64,000 bases of DNA, from NCBI GenBank assembly GCA_047619205.1, contig JBLHJR010000006.1, positions 77 through 64,076 of the forward strand. Direction: 5' to 3'. Both the position numbers and the translations under genes were made by a program. Below, piece by piece: positions 3,421 through 47,465 of the stretch. Below the pieces are notes generated by a model. The model ran no database searches and was not told where the DNA came from. It saw only the letters and a list, made by a program, of their open reading frames with translations. This stretch comes from Candidatus Endobugula sp. GTDB taxonomy: Bacteria; Pseudomonadota; Gammaproteobacteria; Pseudomonadales; Cellvibrionaceae. The first letter of the stretch is position 1. Each line of letters opens with the position of its first letter.

Positions 3421-3465
3421 AGTCGTTTTTCCGTAGTAGTTATGTTTTTGGTGTTACATAACTAA

Positions 3466-3494
3466 AGACGAAGCTAAGAGATCAATTGGATGCA
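3466..3494 (-). promoter_or_regulatory. Putative ECF-dependent promoter
   Basis: Minus strand TGCATCC-N17-CGTCT upstream of the COG4315-sigma-antisigma unit, resembling SigK-type promoter motifs. Confidence 0.4.
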
Positions 3495-3583
3495 AAAATA
3501 ATTTATTTATTTTTGCTTAGCGGAAATTGAAGAAAATTTAAGATTCTACCTGATTAAACACCTCTCAGAGCGAGTGGTTATTT

Positions 3584-4087
3584 TTAGAATCCCAGTAATT
3601 CAACAACTGCACCTTCTAGCTTTTCTAAAGCTGGAATGGTTGCAAATTCATCATTAACCATGACATTAAAATCATCATAAGGCTTCAGCATTGTTGCTGC
3701 ATCTTCTTTGATGAGCTCAGGCGTTACCCGACTAAGCCGAGGAATGCCTTGTGTAGGAAAACACAAAAAAGGCAGTTTTGCACTGACACCCGTATTATTA
3801 AGTATCGTCATTTGGCTAGTTAGCTGGAGAGCCGGAATAGCATTACCATTGATGGCTTCATAAGAGACCATCGGCACCATAACACCGCGCCACAATACAT
3901 GACCTAAAAACCATCCGGGCAATTCATTAATCTGTGTATCGCGCATTTGTGGTTTTTTATAAGGCAGCATTTCCGCAACCGATACCGTAGGTAAGATAAG
4001 CTGACCATTGGCAACAGGAATAAGTAAACTAGGAATTTGATTACTAACTGTCTTTGCCTTTGTTGGCATGGTGTTCATCATATTCAT
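3584..4087 (-). CDS. chpC: CheW-like protein ChpC
   Basis: LILPTVSVAEML, WFLGHVLWRGVMVPMVSYE; position after chpB; start uncertain. Confidence 0.8.
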   Translation of the reverse strand: MNMMNTMPTKAKTVSNQIPSLLIPVANGQLILPTVSVAEMLPYKKPQMRDTQINELPGWFLGHVLWRGVMVPMVSYEAINGNAIPALQLTSQMTILNNTGVSAKLPFLCFPTQGIPRLSRVTPELIKEDAATMLKPYDDFNVMVNDEFATIPALEKLEGAVVELLGF

Positions 4088-5049: not shown

Positions 5050-5076
5050 GCACAGTGACTCATCAATCGAACCCTT

Positions 5077-10800: not shown

Positions 10801-10844
10801 GCTATCTTCTCACTTGATTTCCATCAAAAAATGAACATACATTA

Positions 10845-11699
10845 TTACACGCCCTTAATGTATGCTTGAACTTCACCACTATCAGTTTTTTGCATTTTTG
10901 GGTGCTGCCAATCAGTAGTTTCGCCTAGACCAATAACTAATAGCCCGCCAGGCTTCAAGCGATTAACTAGCTGGTTTAATATTTCTCGGCGGCGCCAACG
11001 ACGAAAATAGATGAGTACATTTTGACAAAAAATCACATCCATCAATTGCATCGGCATAACATTTAAATTATTAATATTTGCCTGAGAAAAACATACGCGT
11101 TTCTTTAATCTTGGCAACACTTCAGACTGGTCATCTTCGTAGGGACGAAAATGATTTTTTCTTTCACTCGCAGTAAGAAAACACATACTACGTGGGCCAT
11201 AGACACCCCTCCGAGCAATAGACAGTGCTGGCAAGCTTACATCAACAGCCGTCACACCAAAATAAAAGTGCTCGTTTGACTCCCTTAAACATTCACTCGC
11301 CACCATGGCAAGCCCATAGGGTTCTTCTCCGGTTGAACAACCAACGCTCCATACATCGAAGCTATTTTGCAATGTTTTTTGTTTTATTTTATTTTTTAAA
11401 TATTGGCGCACAAAATCCAGCGAGGGGCGGTGACGAAAAAAGGTTGTTTCTTTAACAACTAGGCGATCAACCAACACCTGCCACTCTACCAGTCCGGCTT
11501 TATTATCCTGTTTAACTTGCTCGTAGTAGTCGTCATAACTAATAACGCCAAGCTCACGCATACGAATAGCAATTTGCGTTTGCAGCAACACTTTTTGTTG
11601 TGGTGCCAGCTGAATACCCGTACGTGACTCAAGTAGCTTTTCCCACAATAAAAATTTGCCTTCGGGTAGTACATCAAATTTCTTAAAAGACCAGGACAT
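10845..11699 (-). CDS. pilK: CheR-type methyltransferase PilK
   Basis: ETTFFRH, VWSVGCSTGEEPY, DVIFCQNVLIYF. Confidence 0.85.
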   Translation of the reverse strand: MSWSFKKFDVLPEGKFLLWEKLLESRTGIQLAPQQKVLLQTQIAIRMRELGVISYDDYYEQVKQDNKAGLVEWQVLVDRLVVKETTFFRHRPSLDFVRQYLKNKIKQKTLQNSFDVWSVGCSTGEEPYGLAMVASECLRESNEHFYFGVTAVDVSLPALSIARRGVYGPRSMCFLTASERKNHFRPYEDDQSEVLPRLKKRVCFSQANINNLNVMPMQLMDVIFCQNVLIYFRRWRRREILNQLVNRLKPGGLLVIGLGETTDWQHPKMQKTDSGEVQAYIKGV

Positions 11700-11700
11700 A

Positions 11701-14070
11701 TTAGCTTACAGAATCTTTTTCTTTTTCATCGATAAAGTCAAAGTCACTCAGATCAAAATCATCAGCCGACAAATCAACCCCTTCACTTTCAGCCAAACTT
11801 AGCATCTCCTCTGAAAAATCATATTCATCCTCACTTAGCGCTGCGCTAGCTCTTGGCATATTGCCCGGGCTCTCAAAATCATCCGTCTCAAAATTAAACT
11901 CTTCATTATTGTCAAACAAGCCCGCTAAGTCGTCGACAATATTGTCATCGACCACATCTAAACCTAAACTTGCATCTGGAGAATACTCATCCTGCACATC
12001 ATCCAGCGCCATATCATTAGCCGACAGCCATGCATCACTATCAATATCGTCAATATCGGTATCCAACTCATCAGGCAACGTAAAGCCCGCTACTGATTCA
12101 CGCAACTCAAGCGCCATATCCGCTAGATCACCAATGGCCTGCGCCGTCGCACCGGTACCCGCAGATGTTTGCGAAGTGATTTCTTGAATAACATTCATCG
12201 TATTAGAAATATGACCGGCTGAAGATGCCTGCTGACGTGCCGCGTTCGAAATATTCTGAATAAGTTCGGCCAAGTTTGCCGATACACCTTCAATCTCTTC
12301 CAGTGCGACACCCGCATCTTGCGCTAGCCTTGCACCGCCAACCACTTCTGATGTGGTTTGCTCCATTGATTTTACCGCTTCATTCGTATCCGTCTGAATC
12401 GTTTTCACCAATGACTCAATTTGCTTAGTCGCACCAGCAGAACGTTCCGCAAGACGCTGCACCTCATCCGCTACCACCGCAAAACCTCGACCCGCATCAC
12501 CCGCCATCGATGCCTGAATGGCAGCATTCAACGCGAGAATGTTAGTTTGATCCGCAATATCATTAATCAAACTTACGATATCACCAATTTCTTGAGATGA
12601 TTCACCAAGACGCTTAATACGCTTAGAAGTATCTTGAATTTGCTCACGAATAGTATCCATGCCATGAATCGTATTTTGCACCAGCTTTGCGCCGTTATTG
12701 GCAATCGACACCGACTTACTCGCAACCAATGCAGATTCAGCAGCGTTAGCCGATACCTGATCAATAGTTACCGCCATTTCATTAATTGCTGCAGAAGCAC
12801 CCGCAATTTCTTGCGCCTGGTGATCCGACGCTTCGGCAAGATGTAACGCCGTTTGCTGTGATTCCTGCGCAGCACCCGATACCTGTACCGCGGTTTTATT
12901 AATACGGGAAACCAATTGCCTCAATTGGTCAATGGTATAGTTAACCGAGTCCGCAATGGCGCCAGTAAAATCTTCCGATACCGTTGTCGTTACCGTCAAG
13001 TCACCATCGGCGAGATCCGCCAACTCATCCAGCAAACGCAGAATAGCAGCCTGCACGTTTTCATTTTCAGATTGCTCCAACTGAATAATTTCACGAGACG
13101 ATTGTTTCTGAGCGTATATAAAACCAACAACACTTAACATAAAACCAATTAGGGCAAATAATACCAATATTGGCTGATAAAAACGTTGTGACTCTAAAGT
13201 TTCAAGACCCAAGCTCATATCATCCAGTGCAAGCTGCAAGCCATCAAAACTAGCGCTTACCTTACTCTGCGCATCTCGAGCCAGCAATAACGCTTCTACG
13301 GCATTAATGATGTAGGTTTCTGCCTGATCAATACCTACAATTAAGCTTTGCACATTTTCTATATCTGCTCTAACCGCTTTATCTTTAATTGCGTTAATTT
13401 TTTTAGCCGCGTCTCCGCCCAACAATGCCTCATAATTATTTTCGTAACCAACCACATCACCCCTATAACGATCAAACGCTTGGCTACTGGTGCTTACCAC
13501 TCCAGCAAATTTTTTCATATTATTTGCCATTGATCTAAGTAAAATAGGCTGATCATTCAACATGCTGACCTGCTCTTTAGTACCGCCTTTTGATACCGTT
13601 CTTGCTACCGTACCTACAATGATTTTTTGTGACTCAGTGGCCGCCTCGTCTAGCTTAGTTGCTGTCGCATTAATCAAAGCAATCGCATATTCAATATCAC
13701 CGATAATTGCCGAGTTATTACGAATGCTGCGCCAGAAATTAATTGCAGACTCATACTCGTCAGCTAGCTGTTCTTTAGTAAAGCTATCCGCTTGCAACAA
13801 AAAATTGATGGTGTTATCCATTGTATCAACGGTTGCCACCAATGCATCAATCGCAGCAGGGTCACCCGTGACCGTTTTACGCGAGAAGAATAAAACATTT
13901 TTTGAAAGTGTCTGAAACTCACTAATTTTCTGGATATTTTCAGTGTCTCTCTTGGTGTTTTCCCATATCTTATAGCCCCAAAAAATCGACACCATCAATA
14001 ATATTAACGCACTAACCGCAAAAACTAGCAGCCAGTAACGCTCCGAAAAAATACCTTTATCATTTTTCAT
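11701..14070 (-). CDS. pilJ: Methyl-accepting chemotaxis protein PilJ with long acidic C-terminal tail
   Basis: Two TM segments, HAMP, QTNILALNAAIQASMAGDAGRGFAVVADEVQRLAERS hairpin. Confidence 0.9.
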   Translation of the reverse strand: MKNDKGIFSERYWLLVFAVSALILLMVSIFWGYKIWENTKRDTENIQKISEFQTLSKNVLFFSRKTVTGDPAAIDALVATVDTMDNTINFLLQADSFTKEQLADEYESAINFWRSIRNNSAIIGDIEYAIALINATATKLDEAATESQKIIVGTVARTVSKGGTKEQVSMLNDQPILLRSMANNMKKFAGVVSTSSQAFDRYRGDVVGYENNYEALLGGDAAKKINAIKDKAVRADIENVQSLIVGIDQAETYIINAVEALLLARDAQSKVSASFDGLQLALDDMSLGLETLESQRFYQPILVLFALIGFMLSVVGFIYAQKQSSREIIQLEQSENENVQAAILRLLDELADLADGDLTVTTTVSEDFTGAIADSVNYTIDQLRQLVSRINKTAVQVSGAAQESQQTALHLAEASDHQAQEIAGASAAINEMAVTIDQVSANAAESALVASKSVSIANNGAKLVQNTIHGMDTIREQIQDTSKRIKRLGESSQEIGDIVSLINDIADQTNILALNAAIQASMAGDAGRGFAVVADEVQRLAERSAGATKQIESLVKTIQTDTNEAVKSMEQTTSEVVGGARLAQDAGVALEEIEGVSANLAELIQNISNAARQQASSAGHISNTMNVIQEITSQTSAGTGATAQAIGDLADMALELRESVAGFTLPDELDTDIDDIDSDAWLSANDMALDDVQDEYSPDASLGLDVVDDNIVDDLAGLFDNNEEFNFETDDFESPGNMPRASAALSEDEYDFSEEMLSLAESEGVDLSADDFDLSDFDFIDEKEKDSVS

Positions 14071-33744: not shown

Positions 33745-34911
33745 TTATTTAAAATAACTAATCATCACACCAGCGGCAATCGCGGAGCCAATAACACCGG
33801 CTACATTTGGACCCATAGCATGCATCAATAAAAAGTTTTGGTTGTTCGACTCTAACCCTAACTTATTCGATACCCTTGCCGCCATTGGCACCGCCGATAC
33901 TCCCGCAGAACCGATCAGAGGGTTAATTTTAACTTTCAAAAATAGATTCATAAATTTCGCCGCTAATACCCCCGCTGCAGTACCAATACAGAAGGCCACT
34001 AAACCTAACACCAGAATACCTAAAGTTTCTGTATTAAGAAAACTCTCCGCACTTAATTTTGAGCCTACACCCAAACCTAAAAATATTGTCACTATATTAA
34101 TTAATGAATTTTGCACAGTATCGCTTAAACGATCAACTACTCCACACTCTTTCATCAAATTACCGAAACAAAACATTCCCAATAGCGGTGCAGCACTCGG
34201 TAGAAACAGCGCTACCAATAATAGTACCGCCAATGGAAAACAAATTTTTTCCACTTGAGAAACCGGTCGTAATTGCGTCATCACAATTCTTCGTTCGGCT
34301 TGCGTTGTTAGCGCACGCATAATTGGCGGCTGAATTAACGGTACTAGTGCCATATAAGAATATGCTGCTACCGCAATGGCTCCCAATAATTCAGGGGCTA
34401 ATTTACTCGCAACAAATATGGAAGTGGGACCATCCGCACCACCAATAATACCAATAGCTGCGGCTTGCAATAAGGTGAAATCAACCAGACCTGTTGCGGT
34501 CAAACCAACAGCACCAATAACCGTAGCAAAAATACCAAACTGTGCAGCCGCACCCAAAAATAGAGTTTTAGGATTAGCCAGCAGAGGACCAAAATCCGTC
34601 ATCGCACCCACACCCATAAAAATCATTAGCGGGAAAATTCCCGTCTCAATGCCAATATGGAAGATGTAATACAATAATCCACCCGCACTACTTAAATGAC
34701 CATCAACATCATAAATGGGCGCGTCAGACATACCGGCACCGGGGATATTAGCCAGCACGGTACCCATACCAATAGTCACTAATAATAATGGTTCAAATTT
34801 TTTGGCAATCGCTAAATACAGTAATAACAAACCTATCGGCATCATTATTGCTTGCCCAAGACTCATATTGGCCAATCCTGAATCCAATATTAACGCGTAT
34901 AATTTTTCCAT
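33745..34911 (-). CDS. oadB: Na+-translocating decarboxylase beta subunit
   Basis: [46 protein letters not shown] all intact. Confidence 0.95.
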
Positions 34912-34923: not shown

Positions 34924-36720
34924 TTAAATAGTTATTAGGGTATCGCCAACAGAGACAGAATCGCCTTCTTTCACATGAATATTAGCAATCGTCGCCGCAG
35001 TAGCAGCCTTCACTTCTGTCTCCATCTTCATGGCTTCTAATATTAATAAGGTATCACCCTCAACCACTGACTGACCTGGGGCAACACAGACTTTTACAAT
35101 ATTACCTGCTAGTGGTGCGGCAATCGCTTCACCAGAGCTAAGCGCACTACTTCTACTACTAACCGATGAATCTGTATTGGCTTCATCACCTACTTCTACC
35201 TTCACCGTATATTCATGGCCGTTGATATCAATAGAGACTGAACCATCATCATCAACATTAACAATATAATTTTTACCGTTTAGCTTCATGCTGTAAATAT
35301 TTGATGCTTCATCATCCACAGCTATTGCTTGTGGTACAGGCTCAAAGGCTTCCGCATTATCACGATGCTCAAGGAAGTTCAGACCGGAGCGTGGAAATAA
35401 CCCCAAAATTAAAGCATCTTCAATGGCATTATCCGCAAGCACAAAGCCCTTGTCTTTAGCGTGAACGGCTAAGTCTTTAGTTAAGGATTCTATTTCTGGC
35501 TCTAACAAACTAGCTGGACGACTCTCCATCGCTGTATCACCGTTCAGTACTCTTGACTCAAGCTGCTTATCATAACTACGCGGTGCCATACCGTATTCAC
35601 CTTTCAGCAAACTTTGTGTAGCCTTTGAAATCGACTTATATCGCTTGCCCGCCAGTACATTCTGTACCGATTGGCTAACCACTAGGTCAACATTCGAGGC
35701 AATTAAAGGGATCGAACCTAAATCTTCCTGCGTTTGCAGTACCTCGCTGATCACATCATTCAACTGATCAGCAGCGCCCTGCTCCTTAAGTTGCGCCATA
35801 ATACTGCTTAGCACATCACTGGGTAAACGAGTGCGTAAAATACGTGGGTCGACGTTACGGGAAGGCACTTCAAAAGCTGAATATTTTTTGCGCAGATGAG
35901 AAAAATCATCGGCAATGTTTTCCAGTAACGACAAGTCTAATACTGAAGTCTGCGTACTTCCCTCTAACGCACTCACGATAGATTCCGTTGGTGAAAAACT
36001 ATGGCTCAATGACATTGAAGAAATTGCAGTGTCCACATGATCGACGCCGGCCTCAATGGCTTTTAGTAATGTCATAGACGACAAACCTGCCGCTGCATTC
36101 ATATGCAATGCAATAGGGATACTTAAGGATGCTTTAAGTGCAGTTACCAACTCAAATGCTTTATAAGGGTTTAACGCGCCCGAACTATCATTAATTACCA
36201 GTGAATCTGCACCTAGATCTTCAACTTTTTTTGCTAAATCAACGAAATCGACTTGCTCCGCTGCCGAGCTAGCACTATAAATAATCGACCCCTGAGCATG
36301 AACACCTTGTTTTTTTGCGGCTGATACTGCCGTACGTAAATTACGACTATCATTCATCGCATCAAAAATACGCAAGACGTCAATACCGTTCGCAACCGCA
36401 CACTCAACAAAACTCTCGACCATATCATCCGCATAATGACGTGAACCCATTAGACTCTGGCCATGCAATGACATTTGCTGTTTAGTCTTTGGCATAGCCT
36501 TTTTAAGTTCACGCAATCGATCCCAAGGGCTCTCACCTAGATATCGAATACAGGATTCAAAGACTGCCTGGTCACAAGACTCTACCGACCAATAACCTAC
36601 CTGGTCGAGTTTTTTTGCCAGTGGAAGAATATCATCTAGGCGTAAGCGAGCGGCCAATAGTGAATGATTGGCGCCACCTAAGGCAAGCTCTGTAATGTTA
36701 ATAGGTTTTTTATTTATCAT
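34924..36720 (-). CDS. oadA: Oxaloacetate decarboxylase alpha subunit homolog with degenerate carboxyltransferase active site and intact biotinyl domain
   Basis: Scaffold motifs RLRLDD, LKKAMPKT, RHYADD, FDAMND, VDTAISSMS, LKGEYG and EAMKM retained; catalytic motifs altered (see findings). Confidence 0.9.
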   Translation of the reverse strand: MINKKPINITELALGGANHSLLAARLRLDDILPLAKKLDQVGYWSVESCDQAVFESCIRYLGESPWDRLRELKKAMPKTKQQMSLHGQSLMGSRHYADDMVESFVECAVANGIDVLRIFDAMNDSRNLRTAVSAAKKQGVHAQGSIIYSASSAAEQVDFVDLAKKVEDLGADSLVINDSSGALNPYKAFELVTALKASLSIPIALHMNAAAGLSSMTLLKAIEAGVDHVDTAISSMSLSHSFSPTESIVSALEGSTQTSVLDLSLLENIADDFSHLRKKYSAFEVPSRNVDPRILRTRLPSDVLSSIMAQLKEQGAADQLNDVISEVLQTQEDLGSIPLIASNVDLVVSQSVQNVLAGKRYKSISKATQSLLKGEYGMAPRSYDKQLESRVLNGDTAMESRPASLLEPEIESLTKDLAVHAKDKGFVLADNAIEDALILGLFPRSGLNFLEHRDNAEAFEPVPQAIAVDDEASNIYSMKLNGKNYIVNVDDDGSVSIDINGHEYTVKVEVGDEANTDSSVSSRSSALSSGEAIAAPLAGNIVKVCVAPGQSVVEGDTLLILEAMKMETEVKAATAATIANIHVKEGDSVSVGDTLITI

Positions 36721-36745: not shown

Positions 36746-36961
36746 TTATAAAGTTTTCGATTTTGTATGTCGCATAAAAGCGACGGCAGCGACGGCAGCA
36801 ATATCGGCATCTAATGTATTCATTAGCGGTGCAGGCACTGGCGATAATTTTCTCACCACAAATGACATTAACATGGTCGAAAACACCAGCAGCACCAAAA
36901 ATACAAATACACTGCCCATGCCCATTAGCATTAGCTGAAGGCTAGATTCAAAAAGACTCAT
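36746..36961 (-). CDS. oadG: OadG family gamma subunit
   Basis: Small, single TM (LMLMGMGSVFVFLVLL), upstream of oadA; ATG 36961 after GGAG. Confidence 0.85.
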   Translation of the reverse strand: MSLFESSLQLMLMGMGSVFVFLVLLVFSTMLMSFVVRKLSPVPAPLMNTLDADIAAVAAVAFMRHTKSKTL

Positions 36962-37043
36962 AAGTGTTAACTCCACCGTTTTATTTTGAGTGATTAAAAC
37001 AATAATTGATAGAAATACTGCGTCAGAAAAAACGCGCCCAAGA

Positions 37044-40000
37044 TTAAAGTTTTACCAAGTGAACCAACTTAGAGACCAAAACAGCCACCATTGAAAAATT
37101 ATAGGCAGGCTTTGACTTAGCCAACCACACTAAATCTAAATAACTTTTCAAAGAAGGAAATATTTTATCTGTTTGGTTATTTTCATGGGGTGACGACAAT
37201 AAGTGCCTCAAGGCTTTGACATGATGACTTTCTATTTTTGACACTAAAAATTTCTTATTTTTTCTTTTCCAGCTATCGTCTACCGCGATTTTTTCCATAA
37301 GTTCGTACAACCAAAATATATCTAGCTCTTCACCAATACGGAAAAAGTTATGTAAAACCGTATCACAATCTATAGAAAACTCTTCCGCTATTTTAGCTAA
37401 AGGCAAGACATAATAAGAATAATTTAAAGAATATACTGCTTTAGCAAGATCGAGGCCGACGCCTTTGTTGACCTCTAAACCTACAAGATTATTAAAGCTT
37501 TCTAGATCTTGCGGCGGCATATAAGCCTGTATATTTTCATCTAAGGCAAGCAATATCGACTGATAAGTTTGCACTAAATGATTCACATCTCCCTCTATAC
37601 CCTCTTGTATCAGCCACGTCATAGCTTTATCTAATGGGTAATGAATAGCTAACTGCAGATCCAGTAATACACTACTATCAACAACATACATCAATTGATC
37701 TATTGCATCATATAAATGATTCACACCGAAAATTTCTACAGCAACTATATGTGCTTTTACGAGTGGTGTAATACTGGCTGTATCCTCTTCCAGAACATAG
37801 TTACAGAAAGTAGCGCCCATGCGATTAGCAATATCATTGGTGAGGTAGCTCGCCAATATTTCTTTGCGTAGCGGATGGCTTTTAATATAGCTAGGGTAAG
37901 TTTCCACCAGTTTTTTAGGAAAATAATTAAGCAATAAGGTTTGAAAAAACTCATCTTCAATGAGATCAGAATCAACCAGTGTGTTAAACAATCGACTTTT
38001 ACTATAAGCTAACAACGTTGCCAGCTCTGGCCGTGTAAAACTTTTCTGTGCAGCGATTCTACTTTCTATGTTTTCAGGGGAAGGTATGCAAGCCAGTTCA
38101 CGATCAAGTACATTGTCTCGCTCTAACAAATTAATTAACTGGACAAAACTATCAAAGAAAAAAGGTGAGGTGTAATTTGATTGGCTCAGCATTTTACTCT
38201 GTCTAAAGTTATTATTTAACACCAAATCGGAAACAGAAGAAGACATGCTGGCAAGAAATTCATTGCGCTGCTCATGAGTCATCAAACCATCTTTTATTAC
38301 TTCCTGTAATAAAATCTTAATATTCACTTCATGGTCAGAACAATCAACCCCTGCCGAATTATCGACCGCGTCCATATGAATCAAACCACCACTCAAGGCA
38401 AATTCAACTCTAGCTTTTTGGCTCAAGCCTAAATTTCCGCCTTCAGCAACTACGCTCGCATGTAACTCCGTCGCATTAATACGCACTCGATCGTTAGCTT
38501 TGTCACTAACATCAATATCCGTTTCATCAGACGCTTTCACGTAAGTGCCAATACCCCCATTCCACAACATGTCCACATTAGCGCACAAAATAGCTTTGAT
38601 GAGAGCGTCAGGCGTCATACTTAAATCATCAGTCGAAATATTCAGGCATCGAGCAGCCTCCACAGAAATGACAATATATTTTTTAGTCCGGTCAAAAATC
38701 GCGCCGCCCTCTGACAATAGAGTACTGTTGTAATCTCCCCAAGAAGAATAAGACAGCTCAAATAAACGCTTTCTTTCACCGTAACTTCGCTTAGCATTAG
38801 GGGTAGGGTCAATAAAAATATGTTTATGATTAAAAGCCGCCACTAGCTTAATATTTTTTGACAACAACATTCCGTTACCAAAAACATCACCAGACATATC
38901 ACCAATACCGACAACCGAAATGGCATCGTTATCAATATTTTTTCCGCTTTCTGAAAATAAGCGTTTTGCCGACTGCCATGTGCCCTTTGCCGTAATACCC
39001 ATTTTTTTATGGTCATAACCATACTGGCCACCAGAAGCAAAGGCATCACCTAACCAATACTTATATTCAGCTGCGATGGTATTAGCGAAGTCAGAAAATG
39101 TTGCAGTACCTTTATCGGCAGCCACAACCAAATACGGGTCTTCATCATCATGCCTAACCACCTGTGCTGGCGGTATTGTTTTACCGTCAATACGATTGTC
39201 GGTAAGATCGAGTAAGGCACGAATAAAAATTTCATATCCTGCTTTAATATATGCCGGGTATGAACGCTTGGAGGCATCAATATTATCGACTTTACAAATA
39301 AAGCCACCCTTAGCGCCGACAGGAACAATGACAGAATTTTTCACCATCTGAGCCTTCACCAAACCGAGCACTTCGGTGCGATAATCTTCTGCTCTATCAG
39401 AAAAACGGATACCACCGCGCGCGACTTTACCTCCACGCAAATGCACACCTTCTACATATTGGTTATAGATAAAAATCTCATAAGCGGGAACAGGCTTAGG
39501 AATACCGTCGATATGACGAGGTTCTATTTTAAAACTCAGCGCACTACCGCCATCATCAACATAACTAGGCTTGTAAAAGTTAGTTCTAGTAATAGCTTTC
39601 AACACGGAAAAATACCGCCGACATATTAAGTCATCATCTCTGCCATGAATCAAATCGATACAAGTAGATATTTTTTCTGCCACTTCACTTAAATCGGTTT
39701 TCTCATCGTCAACAGAAGGGGAAAACTTCAATGTAAAGTATTCAATTAATAGCTCGGCGACTTCTTTATGCTTAATTAAGCTCTTAAAAAGAGTATCCAC
39801 ACTAAAGTTAATTTTTATTTGCTGAAGATACTTAGTCAGCGCTCTTAACACTGGCAAGTAATGAATAGAAACATCAGAAAAAAGTGCTAACTTATTTAAC
39901 ACATCATTCTCCGCATGTCCGGAGAACAATTCCGCCAAAAAATCTTCCAGCTCCTTATTTAAGCCATTATTTTCTTGTGGTATTTTTGGCGAATCTTGAA

Positions 40001-40217
40001 CCTCAAAGGCCAGCTGCCATGACTCGCTATCTTTTTCGCTTAAATTACACTGTGCAATAGACAAACCCAAATTTTCTAAAATTGGCACTGCCCTAGAAAG
40101 AGTCAGTTTTTTACCTGTTCCATCCACATACAAAAATAACTTATTGTTTATTTTATCCAGTGAAAAATGTGTCTCACTGATTGATAAATCGTCAACTGCC
40201 GCACTGAAAATGTTCAT
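37044..40217 (-). CDS. Large-type NAD-glutamate dehydrogenase, N-terminally shortened (1057 aa)
   Basis: HLRGGKVARGGIRFSDR, KAQMVKNSVIVPVGAKGGF, DPYLVVAADKGTATFSD, GIGDMSGDVFGNG, EGGNLG, DNSAGVDCSDHEVNIKI. Confidence 0.92.
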   Translation of the reverse strand: MNIFSAAVDDLSISETHFSLDKINNKLFLYVDGTGKKLTLSRAVPILENLGLSIAQCNLSEKDSESWQLAFEVQDSPKIPQENNGLNKELEDFLAELFSGHAENDVLNKLALFSDVSIHYLPVLRALTKYLQQIKINFSVDTLFKSLIKHKEVAELLIEYFTLKFSPSVDDEKTDLSEVAEKISTCIDLIHGRDDDLICRRYFSVLKAITRTNFYKPSYVDDGGSALSFKIEPRHIDGIPKPVPAYEIFIYNQYVEGVHLRGGKVARGGIRFSDRAEDYRTEVLGLVKAQMVKNSVIVPVGAKGGFICKVDNIDASKRSYPAYIKAGYEIFIRALLDLTDNRIDGKTIPPAQVVRHDDEDPYLVVAADKGTATFSDFANTIAAEYKYWLGDAFASGGQYGYDHKKMGITAKGTWQSAKRLFSESGKNIDNDAISVVGIGDMSGDVFGNGMLLSKNIKLVAAFNHKHIFIDPTPNAKRSYGERKRLFELSYSSWGDYNSTLLSEGGAIFDRTKKYIVISVEAARCLNISTDDLSMTPDALIKAILCANVDMLWNGGIGTYVKASDETDIDVSDKANDRVRINATELHASVVAEGGNLGLSQKARVEFALSGGLIHMDAVDNSAGVDCSDHEVNIKILLQEVIKDGLMTHEQRNEFLASMSSSVSDLVLNNNFRQSKMLSQSNYTSPFFFDSFVQLINLLERDNVLDRELACIPSPENIESRIAAQKSFTRPELATLLAYSKSRLFNTLVDSDLIEDEFFQTLLLNYFPKKLVETYPSYIKSHPLRKEILASYLTNDIANRMGATFCNYVLEEDTASITPLVKAHIVAVEIFGVNHLYDAIDQLMYVVDSSVLLDLQLAIHYPLDKAMTWLIQEGIEGDVNHLVQTYQSILLALDENIQAYMPPQDLESFNNLVGLEVNKGVGLDLAKAVYSLNYSYYVLPLAKIAEEFSIDCDTVLHNFFRIGEELDIFWLYELMEKIAVDDSWKRKNKKFLVSKIESHHVKALRHLLSSPHENNQTDKIFPSLKSYLDLVWLAKSKPAYNFSMVAVLVSKLVHLVKL

Positions 40218-40219: not shown

Positions 40220-41146
40220 TTATGAAGTGATTTTAAAAAATTGTTTATGTAAAATGAGTTCTGCTTCTGCTTCACTCACATCGATAGCATGAAAAGACAC
40301 TTTTGTTCCCGGCAAACTTTGTGCAAGTTTTGAAAGATCAAGGTACGTTACGCAACCAATAAGGGGATAGCCCCCCATAGTTTGCCGATCTCTCATGAGC
40401 ACAATAGGTTGCCCGTCTTTTGGCACCTGAATGGCACCCATAGAGATCCCCTGAGAAATGATCCCCGCCAATGGTGTAACAATAGGCTCGCCAGACAACC
40501 GATAGCCCATGCGATCAATGTTTTGAGTCACTTCATATTGCTTATGACTAAATTTTTTCTGCGCATCGATACCCGCCGAGGTTTGCGATACATTAGGCAT
40601 ATAGCGCAAGATAATGTCCTTGGGATACTCTGGAATAAAACGAAAAGGCACCTGCTTGGCGGTTTCTGCTGAATGGGACGTGTAAGGTAAAACATCATCC
40701 TTAGCTAGCTTTGCACCATTTTGTGAAAGGCCACCTAACTTTTCTCGCACCACGGTTGAACTACTGGATAATTGCTTAACAATATCAAAACCGCCCTTGA
40801 CCGCTAGGTAACAGCGCAACCCAGACACAGGAGAAGAAAACTGTATAACATCTCCCGACTTAACTGCATACGAACACCAAGGAAAAATTTCCTGCTGATT
40901 TAGCGTGCAGCCTAAATTAGCGCCACAAATAGCCATCATAGTATCTTCGGTGAACACAGCAGAAAAGCTGCCGTAACTGATTTCTAGCTGAGCCGCGTCA
41001 TAATGATTATCCAATAGATAATTTGCCCACAAAAAGGCGTGCTCATCTAATGGGCCACCATTAGTCACGCCAATACTTTGGTAACCATATCGGCCGTAGT
41101 CTTGTATTAGCGCTAGAAAATTAGAATGTACTATTTTTAGTGACAT
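40220..41146 (-). CDS. pxpC: 5-oxoprolinase subunit C
   Basis: IQDYGRYGY, YLAVKGG, DRMGYRL, DRQTMGGYP. Confidence 0.9.
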   Translation of the reverse strand: MSLKIVHSNFLALIQDYGRYGYQSIGVTNGGPLDEHAFLWANYLLDNHYDAAQLEISYGSFSAVFTEDTMMAICGANLGCTLNQQEIFPWCSYAVKSGDVIQFSSPVSGLRCYLAVKGGFDIVKQLSSSSTVVREKLGGLSQNGAKLAKDDVLPYTSHSAETAKQVPFRFIPEYPKDIILRYMPNVSQTSAGIDAQKKFSHKQYEVTQNIDRMGYRLSGEPIVTPLAGIISQGISMGAIQVPKDGQPIVLMRDRQTMGGYPLIGCVTYLDLSKLAQSLPGTKVSFHAIDVSEAEAELILHKQFFKITS

Positions 41147-41829
41147 TAGAATGTTCCGCCCAATTTAATATATTCTGCCTTGCTGATAGCGTTAAATTTC
41201 ACTTTATCACCAGCAGAGAACTGGGTTAAATTTTCACTATCGTAATCAATCAGCTGTATTGGCGTCCTACCAATAATTTGCCAACCGCCCGGAGAATCCG
41301 AGGGGTAAATTGCCGTTTGTTGATCAGCAATACCCAAGCTTCCTCGAGCCACTTTTTTTCTTGGCGTTTCTTTTCGCGGAGTTGAAATACTGTCATCCAC
41401 ATTACCAAGATAAGCAAAGCCCGGCGCGAAACCAATGGCATAAACATCGTAAACCTTATCGGAATGAATTTGGATAACTTGCTGCGCACTTAACTGTGCT
41501 TGATCTGCAATAAAAGGCAAGTCGAGAGCAACTTCCTCACCATAATAAACAGGGATTTGAATGATCGTCTTAGACTCAACACTAGCCGCTTCATCATTAC
41601 AAGTTTTCAGCAGGCTATTTAATTGATTTTTAAAATCTAAACCAGAAATATTCAACACATCAAAAGTAATATGAATAGAGGCATAAGAAGGAATAATATC
41701 GATAATCATATTATTCATCTCCCGCTTAATTTCATTCACCAAATAACTGATGACTTTAAAATTTTCGTGTTCGATGGTTTGTTTGAATAAAATAACCAGG
41801 GTGTTTTCAGAAATGACAACGATATTCAT
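41146..41829 (-). CDS. pxpB: 5-oxoprolinase subunit B
   Basis: IIPSYASI, IPVYYG, IGFAPGFAYLG, SPGGWQIIGRTP. Confidence 0.9.
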   Translation of the reverse strand: MNIVVISENTLVILFKQTIEHENFKVISYLVNEIKREMNNMIIDIIPSYASIHITFDVLNISGLDFKNQLNSLLKTCNDEAASVESKTIIQIPVYYGEEVALDLPFIADQAQLSAQQVIQIHSDKVYDVYAIGFAPGFAYLGNVDDSISTPRKETPRKKVARGSLGIADQQTAIYPSDSPGGWQIIGRTPIQLIDYDSENLTQFSAGDKVKFNAISKAEYIKLGGTF

Positions 41830-41830: not shown

Positions 41831-42559
41831 TTAACTTAATACATCTCGAATTTTTTGCGCCGATGCAACCGCTAGGCTACCATCACCGTGAATACAAAGG
41901 GTGTCTGCCACTATATTCATTGCTTTCCCTGAAGTGGTTATGACTTGCTTATCGACAATTAACGATCGTGCTTGCTTTGTAATCGTATCTACGTGACTAA
42001 ATACTGCGCCTTCCTCCTGCCGAGATTGTAAACTGCCATCGTCCATATAGGCGCGATCACAAAACGCCTCAAACAATAAAGTGACTTTACATTTATTGGC
42101 AATATCAATATATCGTTGATTATCTGGCGCAGCCATAATCATCAAAGGAATGCCTGATGGCATTAAGGAAACGGCTTTCACTAGCGCTGTGTAGGTGCCC
42201 TCATCGCGCATCATTACATTGTAAAGAGCACCATGGGGCTTCACATAATCAACATCGACACCATGGGCCCGACAAATGGCTTGCAAGGCACCCACTTGGT
42301 AAAGCGTAATGTTAATCAGTTCCGCCGGAGTAAATTTTATTTCTTTTCTACCAAAACCTAATAGATCAGGATAGCCAGGGTGAGCGCCAATAGCGACGCC
42401 ATGCTTCACCGCAAGCGCCACTGTTGAACTCATTATTTGCGGGTCTGAAGCATGAAAACCACAGGCAATATTGGCCATATCAACATAAGGCATTACCTCA
42501 GCATCCGCGCCCATCTTCCAAGGCCCGTAGCTTTCACCCATATCACAGTTGAGTTTCAT
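41831..42559 (-). CDS. pxpA: 5-oxoprolinase subunit A (LamB/YcsF family)
   Basis: LNCDMGES, ACGFHA, GAHPGYPD, YVKPHGALYN, TLCIHGD; start set at ATG 42559 by SD spacing. Confidence 0.92.
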   Translation of the reverse strand: MKLNCDMGESYGPWKMGADAEVMPYVDMANIACGFHASDPQIMSSTVALAVKHGVAIGAHPGYPDLLGFGRKEIKFTPAELINITLYQVGALQAICRAHGVDVDYVKPHGALYNVMMRDEGTYTALVKAVSLMPSGIPLMIMAAPDNQRYIDIANKCKVTLLFEAFCDRAYMDDGSLQSRQEEGAVFSHVDTITKQARSLIVDKQVITTSGKAMNIVADTLCIHGDGSLAVASAQKIRDVLS

Positions 42560-42575
42560 AGAATACATTCCCTAG

Positions 42576-43880
42576 CTAATTGTTCACTGCTTGAGGCAGA
42601 TAAAGCACAATTTCAGGGAAGATGGTAATAATAACAATGCCGATAGCAATCATAAAAAAGAACGGTAACGCGGCCTTAGCGACATATAAAATATTCTTAC
42701 CGGTCAATGCCTGTATGACGAACAAATTAAACCCTACTGGCGGCGTAATCTGTGACATTTCGACCACTAGCACCAGAAAGATGCCAAACCACATCAAATC
42801 TATACCCTGCTGCTGAACCATTGGCAGTACGATAGAGGTCGTTAACACAATGACCGAAATACCATCAAGGAAACAACCTAAAAGTATAAAGAAAATGGCC
42901 AAATAAATAATAAGCTCAATAGAAGATAAGCCCTGCTCTGCAATCCAAGCCGCTAAGGTTAGTGGAATACCGATAAAGCCCATCGCCAAGGTAAGAAAGT
43001 GTGCGCCGACTAAAATTAAGCCCAGCATACAAGAACTTTTTACCGCTCCTAATACACTACTGCGAAACCCTTTTAGTGAAAAACTACCCGTCACCATGGC
43101 AATAACCAAAGCACCGGTAACACCAAAGGCAGCGGCCTCTGTTGGCGTTGCTATACCCGCATAAATTGATCCTAAAACACCAAAAATCAAAGTGGCAATT
43201 GGAAATAATTTTTTCAGTGCAATAATTTTTTCAGTAGTCGAGTACTTGATATCTTCGTCATTGGTTGCATTTTTCTTACTAAATAAAGACCACGCCATGG
43301 TGTAACACATAAACAAGCCGATCAACATAAGGCCGGGGAAAACACCCGCTAAAAATAAGCGAGAAATAGAGACTTCCGCAGCCACACCGTAAACAATCAA
43401 AATAATGGAGGGTGGAATCAACAAGCCTAAGGTTCCCGATCCCGCCAAGGTACCAATAGACAAGGAATCACTATAACCACGCCGGGATAGCTCTGGTAAC
43501 GTCATACGACCAATGGTCGCCGCCGTTGCAGCCGAAGACCCCGATACCGCCGCAAAAATACCGCAACTTAAAATATTCACATGCAGCAACTTACCAGGCA
43601 ATTTAGCCAGCATAGGGGAAAGCCCCTCAAATAAGTCTTGCGATAGCCGAGTACGAAATAGAATTTCGCCCATCCATATAAATAAGGGCAAGGCCGTCAA
43701 CGACCAGCTGGACGCTGCGCTCCAAGAAGACGTCCCTAGCAGCAAACCCACATTACTACTATCAATTAAAAACAAGCCCAGCATTGCCAATCCCATTAGG
43801 GTTAAGGAAATCCAGACACCGCTCACCAACATTAACAGCATGCAGATGGCTAAAATTAAACCTACAATTGATACATCCAC
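42576..43880 (-). CDS. TRAP transporter large permease DctM
   Basis: SGSSAAT, GTLGLLIPPSI, TPTEAAA, ITPPVG. Confidence 0.93.
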   Translation of the reverse strand: MDVSIVGLILAICMLLMLVSGVWISLTLMGLAMLGLFLIDSSNVGLLLGTSSWSAASSWSLTALPLFIWMGEILFRTRLSQDLFEGLSPMLAKLPGKLLHVNILSCGIFAAVSGSSAATAATIGRMTLPELSRRGYSDSLSIGTLAGSGTLGLLIPPSIILIVYGVAAEVSISRLFLAGVFPGLMLIGLFMCYTMAWSLFSKKNATNDEDIKYSTTEKIIALKKLFPIATLIFGVLGSIYAGIATPTEAAAFGVTGALVIAMVTGSFSLKGFRSSVLGAVKSSCMLGLILVGAHFLTLAMGFIGIPLTLAAWIAEQGLSSIELIIYLAIFFILLGCFLDGISVIVLTTSIVLPMVQQQGIDLMWFGIFLVLVVEMSQITPPVGFNLFVIQALTGKNILYVAKAALPFFFMIAIGIVIITIFPEIVLYLPQAVNN

Positions 43881-43884
43881 AGTC

Positions 43885-44406
43885 TTATACCTCAGATTCT
43901 AATTCTAGTGCGTTTTCGGCATGAACATAGCTAGGCACTTTGCCCATCAGCATGGTTACCAATGCATCCAACATGGCAATAAACAAACACGTCGAGCCAA
44001 TCGCCATCGGCATTTGTATCATCCACAATGGCACGGCTAAATAAGTGTCGGTAACATCGGCAAAATCATAAGCCTCATATACCGTAACCGCAGTGTAAAA
44101 TGCCAAGTATCCACTGATACTCAAACCAATGAATATATTGATATATTCAAAAAACTGTTGTCGTCGACCAGAAAAGCGATTTAATAAGATGGTCACTCGA
44201 ATATGGCCGCCTTCGTTAAAGGTATAGGCGAGACCAAAGAAAATAGTGGCTGACAATAACCAGCCAGCGAAGTCCTCAGAAGAGGGAATGATTTGACCAA
44301 GAAGTCGCGCTGCAATTTGCGCTAAAATTAATGACACCATAAGAATCAAACAGAATCCCGATGCCCATGCTGAAAAAAGATAAAAACTGTCTTTAATTTT
44401 TTTCAT
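43885..44406 (-). CDS. TRAP transporter small permease DctQ
   Basis: Four TM segments, GGHIRVT. Confidence 0.9.
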   Translation of the reverse strand: MKKIKDSFYLFSAWASGFCLILMVSLILAQIAARLLGQIIPSSEDFAGWLLSATIFFGLAYTFNEGGHIRVTILLNRFSGRRQQFFEYINIFIGLSISGYLAFYTAVTVYEAYDFADVTDTYLAVPLWMIQMPMAIGSTCLFIAMLDALVTMLMGKVPSYVHAENALELESEV

Positions 44407-44491
44407 AGGAAGATACCTTTGTATTAAAAATTATTTTAAATTGGGCTCCCCTATAGTATAGAAAGTAACAAATAAAAATGCCCACTACTTT

Positions 44492-44524
44492 ATGAAAACA
44501 CGCCCAAACTGGACGCGTTTTCAT
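44492..44524 (-). terminator. Intercistronic stem-loop between dctP and dctQ
   Basis: 15-bp stem, 13/15 Watson-Crick; both deviations are G-U pairs on the transcribed minus strand. Confidence 0.65.
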
Positions 44525-44551
44525 ACTACAAGTTAGAGTGTATCAAAGTAA

Positions 44552-45517
44552 TTACTTGTTATATGCATCGATAATCGCTTGACCTTCTGCGCCAGCTTCA
44601 GCTAACCATTCATCAAGCATAGTTGCACCGATAGCTTGCAGCTCGGAAGTCAACGTAGCCGACGGAGCAGAAACAATAATACCCTTATCGCCAAGGATTT
44701 TAGTGTGCTCTACCGCATTTTTAGCACCTAACGCCCAGCCTTTTTTCTCAGCATTAGCCGCAGCTGCCCAAATAACGTCTTGAGTCGCTTGATCTAATTT
44801 AGCCAACACTTTCGAGTTTACAAAGACCATGTTTTTAGGGATCCAAGCGCTAACGGTAGTAAAGTTTTTGATGTAATCCCAGCTTTGATTATTAACACCC
44901 GTACTTGGTGATGTAATCATGCCGTCAATAACACCAGTAGTAAATGCTTGTGCAACTTCACCGAAAGCAACGTTAACTGGAGTTGAACCCATTAAGTCAG
45001 CCAAGCGCGAAGTGGTTGGGCTATACGCACGCATCTTCAAACCTTTCAAGTCAGCCAAACTGTTAACTACCTTATTTGAATATAAATCCTGCGCAGGCCA
45101 AGGCACGGTATAAAGCAAGGTCATGCCATCTTTAGCCAACTGCTTAGTAATTTCAGGCTTAGTGGCTTGATATAACTTTTGCGCCGAATCAAAGGTTGTC
45201 GCTAAAAAGGGCAAGTTATCCAATTTAAATACCGGGTGATTATTGCCTAAGCGGCCACCAAAAACCTCACCAAGTTGAACTTGTCTAGAACGTACTGCAC
45301 CGTAAATTTCAGGATGCTTAATTAAAGATGCGCCTGAGTGAACTTTAATAGTTAACTTATCGCCCGTGTTTTTAGCAATTTCTTCCGCAAACGATCTTGC
45401 TACTTGCGTTGGGTGGTTAGCATCGCCATAAGGTGTAGGCATGTTCCAAGTTTCAGCTAAAGCACTCGCAGAAACTACCATACCCAGTAGCATCGGTAAA
45501 AGTGTTGTTTTCTTCAT
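44552..45517 (-). CDS. TRAP solute-binding protein DctP
   Basis: Signal peptide, WNMPTPY, LKGLKMRAY, VIDGMITS. Confidence 0.92.
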   Translation of the reverse strand: MKKTTLLPMLLGMVVSASALAETWNMPTPYGDANHPTQVARSFAEEIAKNTGDKLTIKVHSGASLIKHPEIYGAVRSRQVQLGEVFGGRLGNNHPVFKLDNLPFLATTFDSAQKLYQATKPEITKQLAKDGMTLLYTVPWPAQDLYSNKVVNSLADLKGLKMRAYSPTTSRLADLMGSTPVNVAFGEVAQAFTTGVIDGMITSPSTGVNNQSWDYIKNFTTVSAWIPKNMVFVNSKVLAKLDQATQDVIWAAAANAEKKGWALGAKNAVEHTKILGDKGIIVSAPSATLTSELQAIGATMLDEWLAEAGAEGQAIIDAYNK

Positions 45518-45621: not shown

Positions 45622-46434
45622 TCAACAATGGCTTACGCTTAAATCCTTATAAGCAAAATCGGTGATTAACATTTTTCCTGGTGCATGCGTAATGACCAAG
45701 GGTAATTTAGCACTTCTAACCGCGGCCTGCGTGGTAACACCACAACCCCAGAACACAGGAATCTCATCATCTTCAATCGGCACAGCAGAACCATAATCCG
45801 GTTGATCCATATTCATAATCCCAATCGACTCAGGACTACCAATATGTACAGGAGCGCCATGAGCTTTAGGAAATTCACTAGTAATGCGCACCACCTCATC
45901 AATATCTTCTTTTTTATAGGGGCGCATCGACACCACCATATTACAATTGAAGTTTTGCGTGCCATTCATCTTGATATTGGTGTCATACATGGAGACATTG
46001 ACACCTAGGCTAATATTTTTTACTGGCAAACCTGCGGCCAGTAAAGCACTTTCGAAGGAAAACGAACAACCTAGCACTACGGCAACCGAATCATCAGCCC
46101 AATACTGTTGAATATCCGCTACGCTAGCAACAAAATTGCCATGTTCAAAAATATGGTACTCAGGGAGGTCGAGCCTAATATCTAGATTTTTTCCTAGGTT
46201 ATCGATGGCGGGGTCACCCGGCTTGGAAACACCCAACAAGGGGCAAGGCTTTGGATTTTTTTGGCAGAATTCGATAAATTCATCAGCAAAGGCCTTAGGC
46301 ATAATCACTAAGTTACCCTGCACCAGATCTGGCATCAAGCCACTAGTGTTATCAACATAATCACCGCTGCGTATGGTTGCTCTAAGCTGCTGAAGATTCG
46401 TCATAACAAAAAACCTATTATTATTAATAAACAA
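45622..46434 (-). CDS. DUF1445/UPF0317 family (YcsI-like) protein
   Basis: QGNLVIMP, NPKPCPLL, LGCSFSFE, VVSMRP, HGAPVHIG, PVFWGCGVT, THAPG; start may be 46404. Confidence 0.88.
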   Translation of the reverse strand: MFINNNRFFVMTNLQQLRATIRSGDYVDNTSGLMPDLVQGNLVIMPKAFADEFIEFCQKNPKPCPLLGVSKPGDPAIDNLGKNLDIRLDLPEYHIFEHGNFVASVADIQQYWADDSVAVVLGCSFSFESALLAAGLPVKNISLGVNVSMYDTNIKMNGTQNFNCNMVVSMRPYKKEDIDEVVRITSEFPKAHGAPVHIGSPESIGIMNMDQPDYGSAVPIEDDEIPVFWGCGVTTQAAVRSAKLPLVITHAPGKMLITDFAYKDLSVSHC

Positions 46435-46574: not shown

Positions 46575-47465
46575 TTATTGACTGTAGTCAGCAATCACCG
46601 ATTTAGCCAATTCAATCATCGATAACAATTCAGGTTTATGGGGACTCATGGGATAGGAAGCGGTAAAGGTCATATCGGAGGGGTGCCAATCGGTATTAAT
46701 AATGTGTAAACGCCCCTTACGGAGGTCTTTTGCCACCACATCAAGAGGCACTGCTGAAATACCCATACCGTCAACGACCAAGCGTCGACAAACGGCTAAA
46801 GAACTAGACGCGAACAGCCTGGCAGGCCGCTCAGAGCCACGGGCAAATTCACGGGTAATTTCATTGTAAGGTACGGTATTGCGAGCATAAGTAATAATAG
46901 GCCAACGCGATAACGCAGAGGTAGATTGCACCTCAGAACCAATACCTAATGATGGGCTAGCCACCCAAATCAAGGGCATGGTATCGAGATGATCGTTGAC
47001 GATAACAGGGTCTGACAAAGGCCCCACTAAGAAGGCAATATCAATCGCGCCAGTCAATAGTTGCTTTGCTAGGGTGACGGAAACATCCACCGTTAATTCA
47101 ATGGCAACGCTGGGCACATCTTCTTGAAAACGCTTCAAAAAAGTCGAAAGCCATGAGTGCGCGATAGTTTCCGAAACACCAAGACGCAACAAGCCCGAAT
47201 AGGCAGCCTCATTATTTGCTGTGTTAGTGAGTTCTTTAGCAAAGTACACTAGCTTTTCGGCATAAGGCATCAACTCATGCCCCTTGGGTGTTAAAAACAC
47301 CTTACTGTTACCTTCACGTTCAAATAACTTAACGCCTAATTCTTCTTCCAGCAATGATATTCTAGATGAAATGGCAGGCTGGGTTGTACACTGCTGCTCG
47401 GCCGCTTTACTAAAGCTATGCAACTTTGCCACCCAAAAAAATGCTTCTATGCGTTTAAAATTCAT
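46575..47465 (-). CDS. LysR family transcriptional regulator
   Basis: SFSKAAE..TTQPAISSRI..LE.ELGVKLFER HTH; LRLGVSET. Confidence 0.95.
   Translation of the reverse strand: MNFKRIEAFFWVAKLHSFSKAAEQQCTTQPAISSRISLLEEELGVKLFEREGNSKVFLTPKGHELMPYAEKLVYFAKELTNTANNEAAYSGLLRLGVSETIAHSWLSTFLKRFQEDVPSVAIELTVDVSVTLAKQLLTGAIDIAFLVGPLSDPVIVNDHLDTMPLIWVASPSLGIGSEVQSTSALSRWPIITYARNTVPYNEITREFARGSERPARLFASSSLAVCRRLVVDGMGISAVPLDVVAKDLRKGRLHIINTDWHPSDMTFTASYPMSPHKPELLSMIELAKSVIADYSQ

Follow-up and report, generated by a model that had tools for sequence, protein, structure and literature searches.

A catalytically degenerate OadA from Candidatus Endobugula, apparently the biotin carrier of a sodium-pump module repeatedly joined, in marine bacteria, to 5-oxoproline/glutamate breakdown genes

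Introduction

To our knowledge, Na+-translocating biotin decarboxylases are known for only four substrates, and always with a dedicated carboxyltransferase (CT). Among the described systems, the oxaloacetate decarboxylase OadGAB (V. cholerae, 2NX9; Salmonella, 6IVA/6IWW; Klebsiella) most resembles the locus reported here. We analysed a stretch of 64,000 nucleotides from Candidatus Endobugula sp. (Gammaproteobacteria, Cellvibrionaceae; assembly GCA_047619205.1, contig JBLHJR010000006.1, positions 77 to 64,076 of the forward strand), hereafter the window, which carries the same three genes in the same order. Its alpha subunit, OadA*, is 50-55% identical to canonical OadA over the full length, and OadB, OadG and the biotinylation motif EAMKM are intact. 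Unlike in OadGAB, however, the CT site is without the Asp, the carbamylated Lys, one His, the pyruvate-binding Arg/Gln and the catalytic Thr, and the operon is joined to pxpABC-gdh, not to citrate or C4 genes. OadA* is apparently the biotin-carrying part of an undescribed sodium-pump module, repeatedly attached by marine bacteria to genes for 5-oxoproline/glutamate breakdown.

Several other systems share part of this arrangement. In GcdABCD, MmdABCDE and the Enterococcus oxaloacetate decarboxylase (OAD) with OadD, an OadB-type pump is also served by a carrier without a CT of its own. Their CTs are of the crotonase fold (PF01039) or a separate OadA, whereas the window operon has none such and the assembly only AccA/AccD; the carrier in the window is an OadA of full length whose CT domain is dead, and its presumed CT is of the urea-carboxylase/PxpBC type. 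The CT domain of urea amidolyase/urea carboxylase (K. lactis 3VA7, 5I8I) is homologous to PxpC plus PxpB, and for the window operon we propose chemistry of the same kind, in which carboxybiotin N-carboxylates an amide that is then hydrolysed. Urea carboxylase, however, has its own ATP-dependent biotin carboxylase domain, where the window operon has OadB instead. In mycobacteria, the PxpBC-type complex MSMEG_0435-0436 binds the biotin carboxyl carrier protein (BCCP) of an acyl-CoA carboxylase with the biotin in a pocket (PMC13012033; 9YX5, 3MML), but it sequesters the biotin and lowers carboxylase activity, with neither a Na+ pump nor a PxpA partner, and without demonstrated carboxyl transfer. 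In the PxpABC 5-oxoprolinase (B. subtilis; E. coli YbgJKL; C. glutamicum pxpTABC), the three families are the same and are likewise accompanied by a transporter and a DUF1445/YcsI-like gene, but the known enzyme is reported to depend on ATP and is unlinked to biotin or OadB. A literature search found no paper on an OadA pseudoenzyme or on a Pxp-OadB system.

Results

The carboxyltransferase site of OadA* is dismantled

The gene and the regions of its product are as follows.

34924..36720, minus strand: OadA* (598 aa), oxaloacetate decarboxylase alpha subunit with a dead CT site
OadA* residues 1-290: TIM barrel
OadA* residues 291-460: PYC_OADA
OadA* residues 461-528: linker/association region
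OadA* residues 529-598: biotinyl domain, with biotin Lys565

The 598-codon frame is free of internal stops, and the protein contains the Pfam domains HMGL-like, PYC_OADA and Biotin_lipoyl, the HMGL-like match being weak and partial because the N-terminal half is altered. Residues 5-457 align with V. cholerae OadA (2NX9) at E=2e-135 and without large gaps (phmmer), and alignments were also obtained with PycB (5KS8, E=3e-122) and the transcarboxylase 5S subunit. OadA* thus has the full-length homology to an enzyme family that is expected of a pseudoenzyme.

The original prediction, made from the letters of the window, had described a full-length frame with substitutions focused on the active site. 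Every substitution that it listed is present in the alignment with V. cholerae OadA and PycB, and the frame is indeed full length, but on the minus strand. RDAHQ has become G15-G16-A-N18-H19, WGGATFD is C49-D-Q-A-V-F-E, LLRGQN is SLH86GQS, and IKDM, the position of the carbamylated Lys, is IN177DS. In HxH, now H206-M-N208, the first His ligand (H206) is retained and the second replaced; VPGGM has changed to LPSDV and TPTSQ to A341-S-N-V-D (T to N343). We found further changes beyond that list, GH(S)PTE to SFSPTE (241-242) and LLGYRHY to LMGSRHY (93). OadA* is therefore without three of the four metal ligands (D>G16, K>N177, H>N208), the pyruvate-binding Arg (R>G15), the Gln and second Arg (Q>H19, R>H86) and the proton-shuttle Thr (T>N343), so that the set of residues typical of an OadGAB alpha-subunit CT site (Asp, carbamyl-Lys, His, His; Arg/Gln/Arg; catalytic Thr) is no longer there. 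We take the roles of these positions in metal binding, pyruvate/oxaloacetate binding and proton shuttling to be those described for the published structures of OadA, 5S and pyruvate carboxylase. The biotinyl domain, in contrast, retains its motif, EAMK565M, and thereby the (A/V)MKM signature of OadGAB. AlphaFold2, given an alignment of eight sequences, produced only a poor model of OadA* (mean pLDDT 58.5, pTM 0.30).

The CT active site of OadA* is dismantled. Very probably, OadA* no longer decarboxylates oxaloacetate; it would instead carry biotin and act as a scaffold from which (carboxy)biotin is presented to OadB at the membrane.

Active-site loss is shared by orthologues and followed by purifying selection

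Canonical OadA is present in 36 of 41 genomes of the same order, and canonical OadAs are 64-91% identical among themselves, compared with the 50-55% by which OadA* resembles any of them. A search of 5.8 billion proteins returned three degenerate relatives, all metagenomic (P0002, 89% identical; P0003, 79%; P0007, 60%); the remaining matches were all canonical. The degenerate motifs are common to all four members of this clade. Across 29 canonical OadA sequences of the order, 222 columns are unchanged, and 50 of these are replaced in all four degenerate proteins. The TIM barrel accounts for 28 and PYC_OADA for 22, whereas the 14 of the biotinyl domain are all retained. This distribution indicates active-site loss far beyond chance. 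Some replacements are fixed in all four proteins (G15, G16, N18, C49, N208, A210, S241, F242, N343, V344), and other former key positions drift (177 is N/K/T/N, 86 is H/H/H/Q and 19 is H/H/H/Q), as expected if such positions no longer matter.

For the pairs of clade members with usable dS, the ratio of non-synonymous to synonymous substitution (dN/dS, or omega; Nei-Gojobori) of OadA* was 0.095 (dS 0.59), 0.088 and 0.084, and the dead TIM barrel alone gave 0.05-0.07. A comparison pair of canonical OadAs from the same genus gave 0.012-0.03, and OadB within the degenerate clade 0.02-0.07. OadA* thus evolves at a rate 3-5 times above that of canonical OadA, yet purifying selection is clear. The degenerate frame is full length in six or more independent assemblies, which represent four lineages, and dS reaches ~2. 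Catalytic loss common to orthologues and purifying selection after that loss are both marks of a pseudoenzyme, and they indicate that the whole protein has remained under selection since its active site was lost and is not simply decaying. Selection on a non-catalytic role, as originally predicted, is thus upheld: omega is not near 1, and none of the close orthologues has intact motifs.

Low-identity OadA-like matches in G014 and G026 were considered as further degenerate copies and rejected, being ordinary PycB beside a biotin carboxylase, and the OadA of G010 is split but canonical. The split in G010 (L118, C2, ~10117-11890) yields a CT protein of ~469 aa and, ahead of OadB, a separate biotinyl protein of ~144 aa, so that a split alpha subunit occurs naturally within the same family. 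In G007 (L040, C45), the oadA at ~9218-10948 lies in a frame open for 847 aa with a partial OadB match, which may be a fusion or an assembly problem.

The carrier-pump-PxpABC combination recurs

In the window, pxpA, pxpB and pxpC, the gene set of a 5-oxoprolinase, lie in one co-oriented cluster with oadB and the gene for the biotin carrier. The carrier of such modules has no working CT of the OadA or acyl-CoA type, the domain being dead in the window and absent in G005, a genome of the same genus, and in Arenicella. Gene order and phylogeny indicate that this combination of PxpABC, a carrier without a working CT, and OadB arose at least four times independently. CT loss accompanied pxp adjacency in 4/4 independent cases and in 0/18 canonical loci; none of the 18 canonical oadGAB loci examined had pxp genes within ~10 kb.

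In G005, a 264-aa protein joins the OadG membrane segment to two biotinyl domains, with no CT domain, and is followed by OadB and glutamate dehydrogenase (GDH); TRAP-PxpABC lies nearby, across the origin of the circular contig. The canonical locus of this genome is DctM-OadG-OadA without OadB, and its only OadB is that of the module. With the G005 fusion as query, similar OadG-BCCP-BCCP proteins were found on Arenicella/Arenicellaceae contigs, in the order LysR, D-Glu cyclase, DctPQM, PxpABC, fusion, OadB, GDH, bioBAFGCD. The GDH of the Arenicella module is of the ELFV type and non-homologous to the large-type GDH of the window; such a functional displacement suggests that the link to the pathway is real.

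Directly past the Arenicella module lies a complete biotin synthesis cluster (bioB, bioA, bioF, bioG, bioC, bioD; L064:8916-14836, L066:13506-19426). The module OadB of Arenicella (L112:7279-8406) is 95% identical to the canonical OadB (L069:6133-7260), whereas the carriers of two Arenicellaceae species are only 58% identical. Since the module predates the species split, this identity between paralogues implies extreme constraint or gene conversion.

A survey of pxpC, covering 42 loci from named genomes, revealed a further case in Shewanella hanedai, with the order LysR, D-Glu cyclase, TRAP, PxpABC, OadG, OadA, OadB. Here the module OadA is degenerate in its own way (RDIDQ, WSEATFD, VLSGQK, HCQAT, LPEYML, GSSWQ); intact canonical oadGAB is present elsewhere in the S. 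hanedai genome, as it is in Arenicella. The module copy occurs in two of 148 Shewanella species, S. hanedai and a sister species; in the latter, OadA* has additionally lost the first His ligand. Between the two, omega was 0.22 for OadA*, 0.03 for canonical OadA, 0.014 for the module OadB and 0.08-0.10 for PxpABC. In this pair (L077 vs L119; L111 vs L120), dS is ~0.4 across the pxp-oad module and ~1.9 across canonical oadAB, which suggests a recent exchange of the module region between these species, or a region that for some other reason is far younger than its surroundings.

In a maximum-likelihood tree, the window clade groups with the canonical OadA of its own genus on a stem of 1.03 substitutions per site, which indicates that OadA* descends from the OadA of that genus. 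The degenerate OadA of S. hanedai groups with the canonical copy of the same species (96/92 support), and each module OadB groups with its own lineage. Since long-branch attraction would unite the degenerate copies, their placement with their own lineages argues that the degenerations were independent. The same positions were nevertheless hit more often than expected, with 22 invariant positions lost in both the window and the S. hanedai lineages against 12.2 expected (P=3e-4). These common losses include the H of RDAHQ, the GG of WGGATF, the Arg of LLRGQN, the second His ligand, GH(S)PTE, the GG of VPGGM, and TPTS.

Composition of the window operon

OadA* belongs to a co-oriented cluster of 12 genes (LysR, D-Glu cyclase family, DctP/Q/M, PxpA/B/C, GDH, OadG, OadA*, OadB), whose other members are listed below from the OadB end.

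33745..34911, minus strand: OadB (388 aa, short form), carboxybiotin decarboxylase and Na+ pump, conserved blocks all intact
36746..36976, minus strand: OadG (76 aa), membrane anchor subunit (PF04277, E=1e-8)
37044..40217, minus strand: short large-type NAD-glutamate dehydrogenase (GDH), 1057 aa
40220..41146, minus strand: PxpC (CT_A_B; urea carboxylase CT subdomains A/B fold; E=2e-79), candidate carboxyl-transfer partner
41146..41829, minus strand: PxpB (CT_C_D; urea carboxylase CT subdomains C/D; E=1e-62)
41831..42568, minus strand: PxpA (LamB/YcsF; E=5e-92), lactam-opening subunit of 5-oxoprolinase
42576..45517, minus strand: TRAP transporter (DctM 42576-43880, DctQ 43885-44406, DctP 44552-45517)
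45622..46434, minus strand: D-glutamate cyclase family protein (DUF1445/YcsI-like)
46575..47465, minus strand: LysR-type regulator, at the head of the cluster

The gaps between OadA* and its neighbours are 25 nt on the oadG side and 12 nt on the oadB side. A promoter/terminator scan of the cluster found no convincing internal terminator and only a weak 5-bp stem in the gdh-oadG gap, and thus no evidence for a separate transcription unit. OadB matches Salmonella OadB (6IVA) almost letter for letter in the conserved membrane blocks, including stretches of 40 and 19 residues, which bears out the earlier observation that the OadB motifs, like EAMKM, are intact. The blocks around D203, Y229, S382 and R389 (Salmonella/Klebsiella numbering) are identical, as expected of an OadGAB beta subunit. 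The gene for the gamma subunit (OAD_gamma) lies upstream of the alpha gene, again as in OadGAB. For the four OadB residues, we presume the roles that are given in the literature.

The GDH gene starts 2 nt past pxpC, and its product has the catalytic and C-terminal domains and is missing most N-terminal regulatory domains. A similar GDH follows pxpC or oadB in G005, Arenicella sp. (L072) and Motiliproteus (L073). In the 60% relative, whose contig is L033, the genes form a tight operon in the same order, but there the GDH is cut to a 60-aa remnant (L033:9264-9425; 52% identical to residues 225-284), and GDH is therefore dispensable for the module. The other two degenerate relatives have the order GDH-OadG-OadA*-OadB.

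Within the genus, OadB of the window is 80% identical to other OadBs, and canonical oadGAB adjoins another TRAP transporter (29% DctM), with no linkage to pxpABC. A locus in G008 (cytochrome c4, DsbA, GGDEF, pxpCBA, DUF4344, HemH) is syntenic with the flanks of the window, which argues that the oad genes and gdh joined a pre-existing pxp locus.

Other carboxyltransferases and oad genes

The original prediction had put forward another carboxyltransferase or carboxylase as a possible partner of OadA*. In the source assembly, which is 97.6% complete, we found no second oadA/pycB and no acyl-CoA carboxyltransferase besides AccA/AccD; the biotin-related proteins are AccA/AccD, one AccC, AccB and lipoyl proteins. 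This negative is limited by contig C110 (5818 bp), which at each end (L114:1-235 and 5584-5817) carries the final 78 codons of an additional oadB gene. These two genes differ from one another, are oriented convergently and are 84-90% identical to OadBs of the genus. Between them lie two dCache histidine kinases (403-1767, plus strand; 4131-5495, minus strand) and a methyl-accepting chemotaxis protein (MCP; 1961-3871, minus strand). C110 is low in GC, although its tetranucleotide profile is typical of the genome. Logan, which assigns C110 to SRR28416798, provides an independent assembly (L115; one contig, found via the MCP gene of C110) that breaks at the same point. A search via OadB homologues for the rest of these genes returned only canonical relatives with other C-termini. 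The organism thus probably has more oad loci in a collapsed repeat outside the bin.

In part of the genus, canonical OAD is being lost. In G001 (L042 = G001:C2:35801-55800, ~9309-12250), the canonical oadA contains TAA/TAG stops and oadB is in three pieces, and the pxpA of the same genome (L059:5847-6755) is seemingly split. G002 has neither oadA nor oadB, and its PxpABC stands alone.

Discussion

We describe an OadA that has kept its fold family, its biotinylation motif and its pump while its CT site was lost, in a gene context that recurs with independently inactivated or deleted CT domains. The proposal of the original prediction that OadA* is a scaffold or biotin carrier gains strong comparative support from the carriers whose CT was deleted or separately degenerated elsewhere in the pxpABC context. 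We found nothing in support of the other suggested role, that of a metabolite-sensing subunit.

We consider it quite possible, though short of probable, that the carboxyl group is exchanged at PxpBC and that the operon is a Na+-coupled biotin enzyme acting on 5-oxoproline, by analogy with urea carboxylase. OadB is said, after work by Dimroth and Hilpert in 1984, to be reversible under a Na+ gradient. In the direction that we prefer, OadB would run in reverse, so that Na+ influx makes carboxybiotin on OadA*. PxpBC would then N-carboxylate the lactam of 5-oxoproline, as urea carboxylase does urea, PxpA would hydrolyse the activated ring, and the resulting carbamate would lose CO2 to give glutamate for GDH. 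A live OadA CT would drain carboxybiotin into pyruvate (oxaloacetate synthesis), and we propose that the domain was repeatedly inactivated or deleted because it would waste carboxybiotin in this manner. That the operon forms a 5-oxoprolinase driven by the Na+-motive force and independent of ATP (a "lactam amidolyase"), with the window as an intermediate between classical oxaloacetate decarboxylase and such an enzyme, is an unlikely outcome that we offer tentatively.

Apart from OadA* itself, PxpBC alone has a CT fold among the products of the operon. Homology links PxpC to the CT of urea carboxylase: urea carboxylase reading frames of relatives match it at E ~1e-28, and 3VA7 at 1e-23. Moreover, cryo-EM (2026) of the mycobacterial PxpC/PxpB homologues MSMEG_0435-0436 revealed them bound to BCCP, with the biotin in a pose fit for carboxyl transfer (PMC13012033). 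The opening of the 5-oxoproline ring is uphill, with Keq ~0.035, and is normally paid for by ATP (PMC13274462). A coupling of PxpBC to the biotin of the carrier may be proposed by analogy with these systems, but several observations weigh against it. The mycobacterial complex has no measurable carboxylase activity and acts as an inhibitor (PMC13012033), and PxpABC is described as ATP-dependent, without biotin (PMC13274462). Orthologous PxpABC stands alone in genomes of the same genus, including G002 with neither OadA nor OadB, and PxpB and PxpC have not diverged further in module-bearing genomes than where they stand alone, giving no signal of co-adaptation. A canonical OadA is encoded outside the module in Arenicella, S. 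hanedai, the sister species and G005, and the two truncated oadB genes on C110 make it unsafe to conclude that the source organism has no second OadA.

These last points also favour the main alternative, possible but unlikely, in which the module provides ordinary oxaloacetate decarboxylase capacity under 5-oxoproline/glutamate control: the biotin of OadA* (or of OadG-BCCP2) would be carboxylated in trans by canonical OadA, and the module's own CT, being redundant, would have decayed or been deleted. The purpose would be cataplerosis of C5 carbon, with Na+ export paying for Na+-coupled TRAP uptake, and an OAD induced with the glutamate pathway makes plain metabolic sense on both counts. A Na+ symporter linked to OAD is a known theme, as in citS-oadGAB of Klebsiella, and canonical oadGAB in the genus also adjoins a TRAP transporter. 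G005 has an intact OadG-OadA without an adjoining OadB, its sole OadB being that of the module; canonical oadGAB is kept in Arenicella, S. hanedai and the sister species; every other module-bearing genome that could be checked has canonical OadA; and C110 suggests unassembled extra oad loci in the source genome. On the other hand, canonical OadA is absent from an assembly that is 97.6% complete, and redundancy alone does not predict the perfect tie between CT loss and pxp genes. Furthermore, the extra module OadB in Arenicella and Shewanella needs a reason of its own, because the canonical operon already has an OadB, and loading in trans would leave the purifying selection on the dead TIM barrel to be explained.

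The remaining explanations fare worse. Loading of OadA* by the housekeeping AccC, with ATP and bicarbonate, would make OadB the outlet of an ATP-driven Na+ pump that works via carboxybiotin. AccC is the sole biotin carboxylase in the genome, and AccA/AccD are the only other carboxyltransferases, but such a pump would be wasteful compared with known Na+ pumps and would leave the pxpABC link unexplained, and accC or another biotin carboxylase lies near pxp in 0/42 loci, so we consider it very improbable. Clusters of the LamB-PxpBC-AccBC type may nevertheless occur in Pseudomonas. We give hardly any credence to simple decay, in which the oad operon would be on its way out as in G001 and G002 and OadA* a not-yet-interrupted pseudogene. 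The stops and breaks in G001, the absence of both genes from G002, the accelerated evolution of OadA*, and the omega of 0.22 and further ligand loss in Shewanella would all fit such a course, but the full-length frame persists across assemblies and lineages up to dS ~2, omega of OadA* is ~0.09 with the biotinyl invariants untouched, and omega of OadB is 0.014-0.07. Nor does it seem at all probable that OadA* is still an enzyme, with its active site rebuilt for another substrate or for metal-free chemistry. The ten replacements conserved in all four clade members could be read in that sense, yet positions 177, 86 and 19 drift, the parallel modules of G005 and Arenicella have no CT domain whatever, and in the Shewanella copy these elements were also lost, but other residues took their place.

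Taken together, pump and carrier have been kept while the CT was killed or deleted, repeatedly and only beside PxpABC. The window itself adds the module in marine Gammaproteobacteria, at least four independent origins from each lineage's own oad genes, and an intermediate stage in which the CT domain is dead yet selected. From canonical through degenerate but selected to domain deleted, these loci would form a rare dated series of pseudoenzyme formation. If PxpBC is the partner, the module would represent a new class of Na+-coupled biotin enzyme, and possibly the first case in which a sodium gradient, not ATP, pays for the opening of an amide. It would also supply a catalytic rationale for proteins of the PxpBC/KipIA type, whose binding to biotin carriers has only just been seen in mycobacteria. 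Since the module-bearing Shewanella species are culturable, the idea is directly testable.

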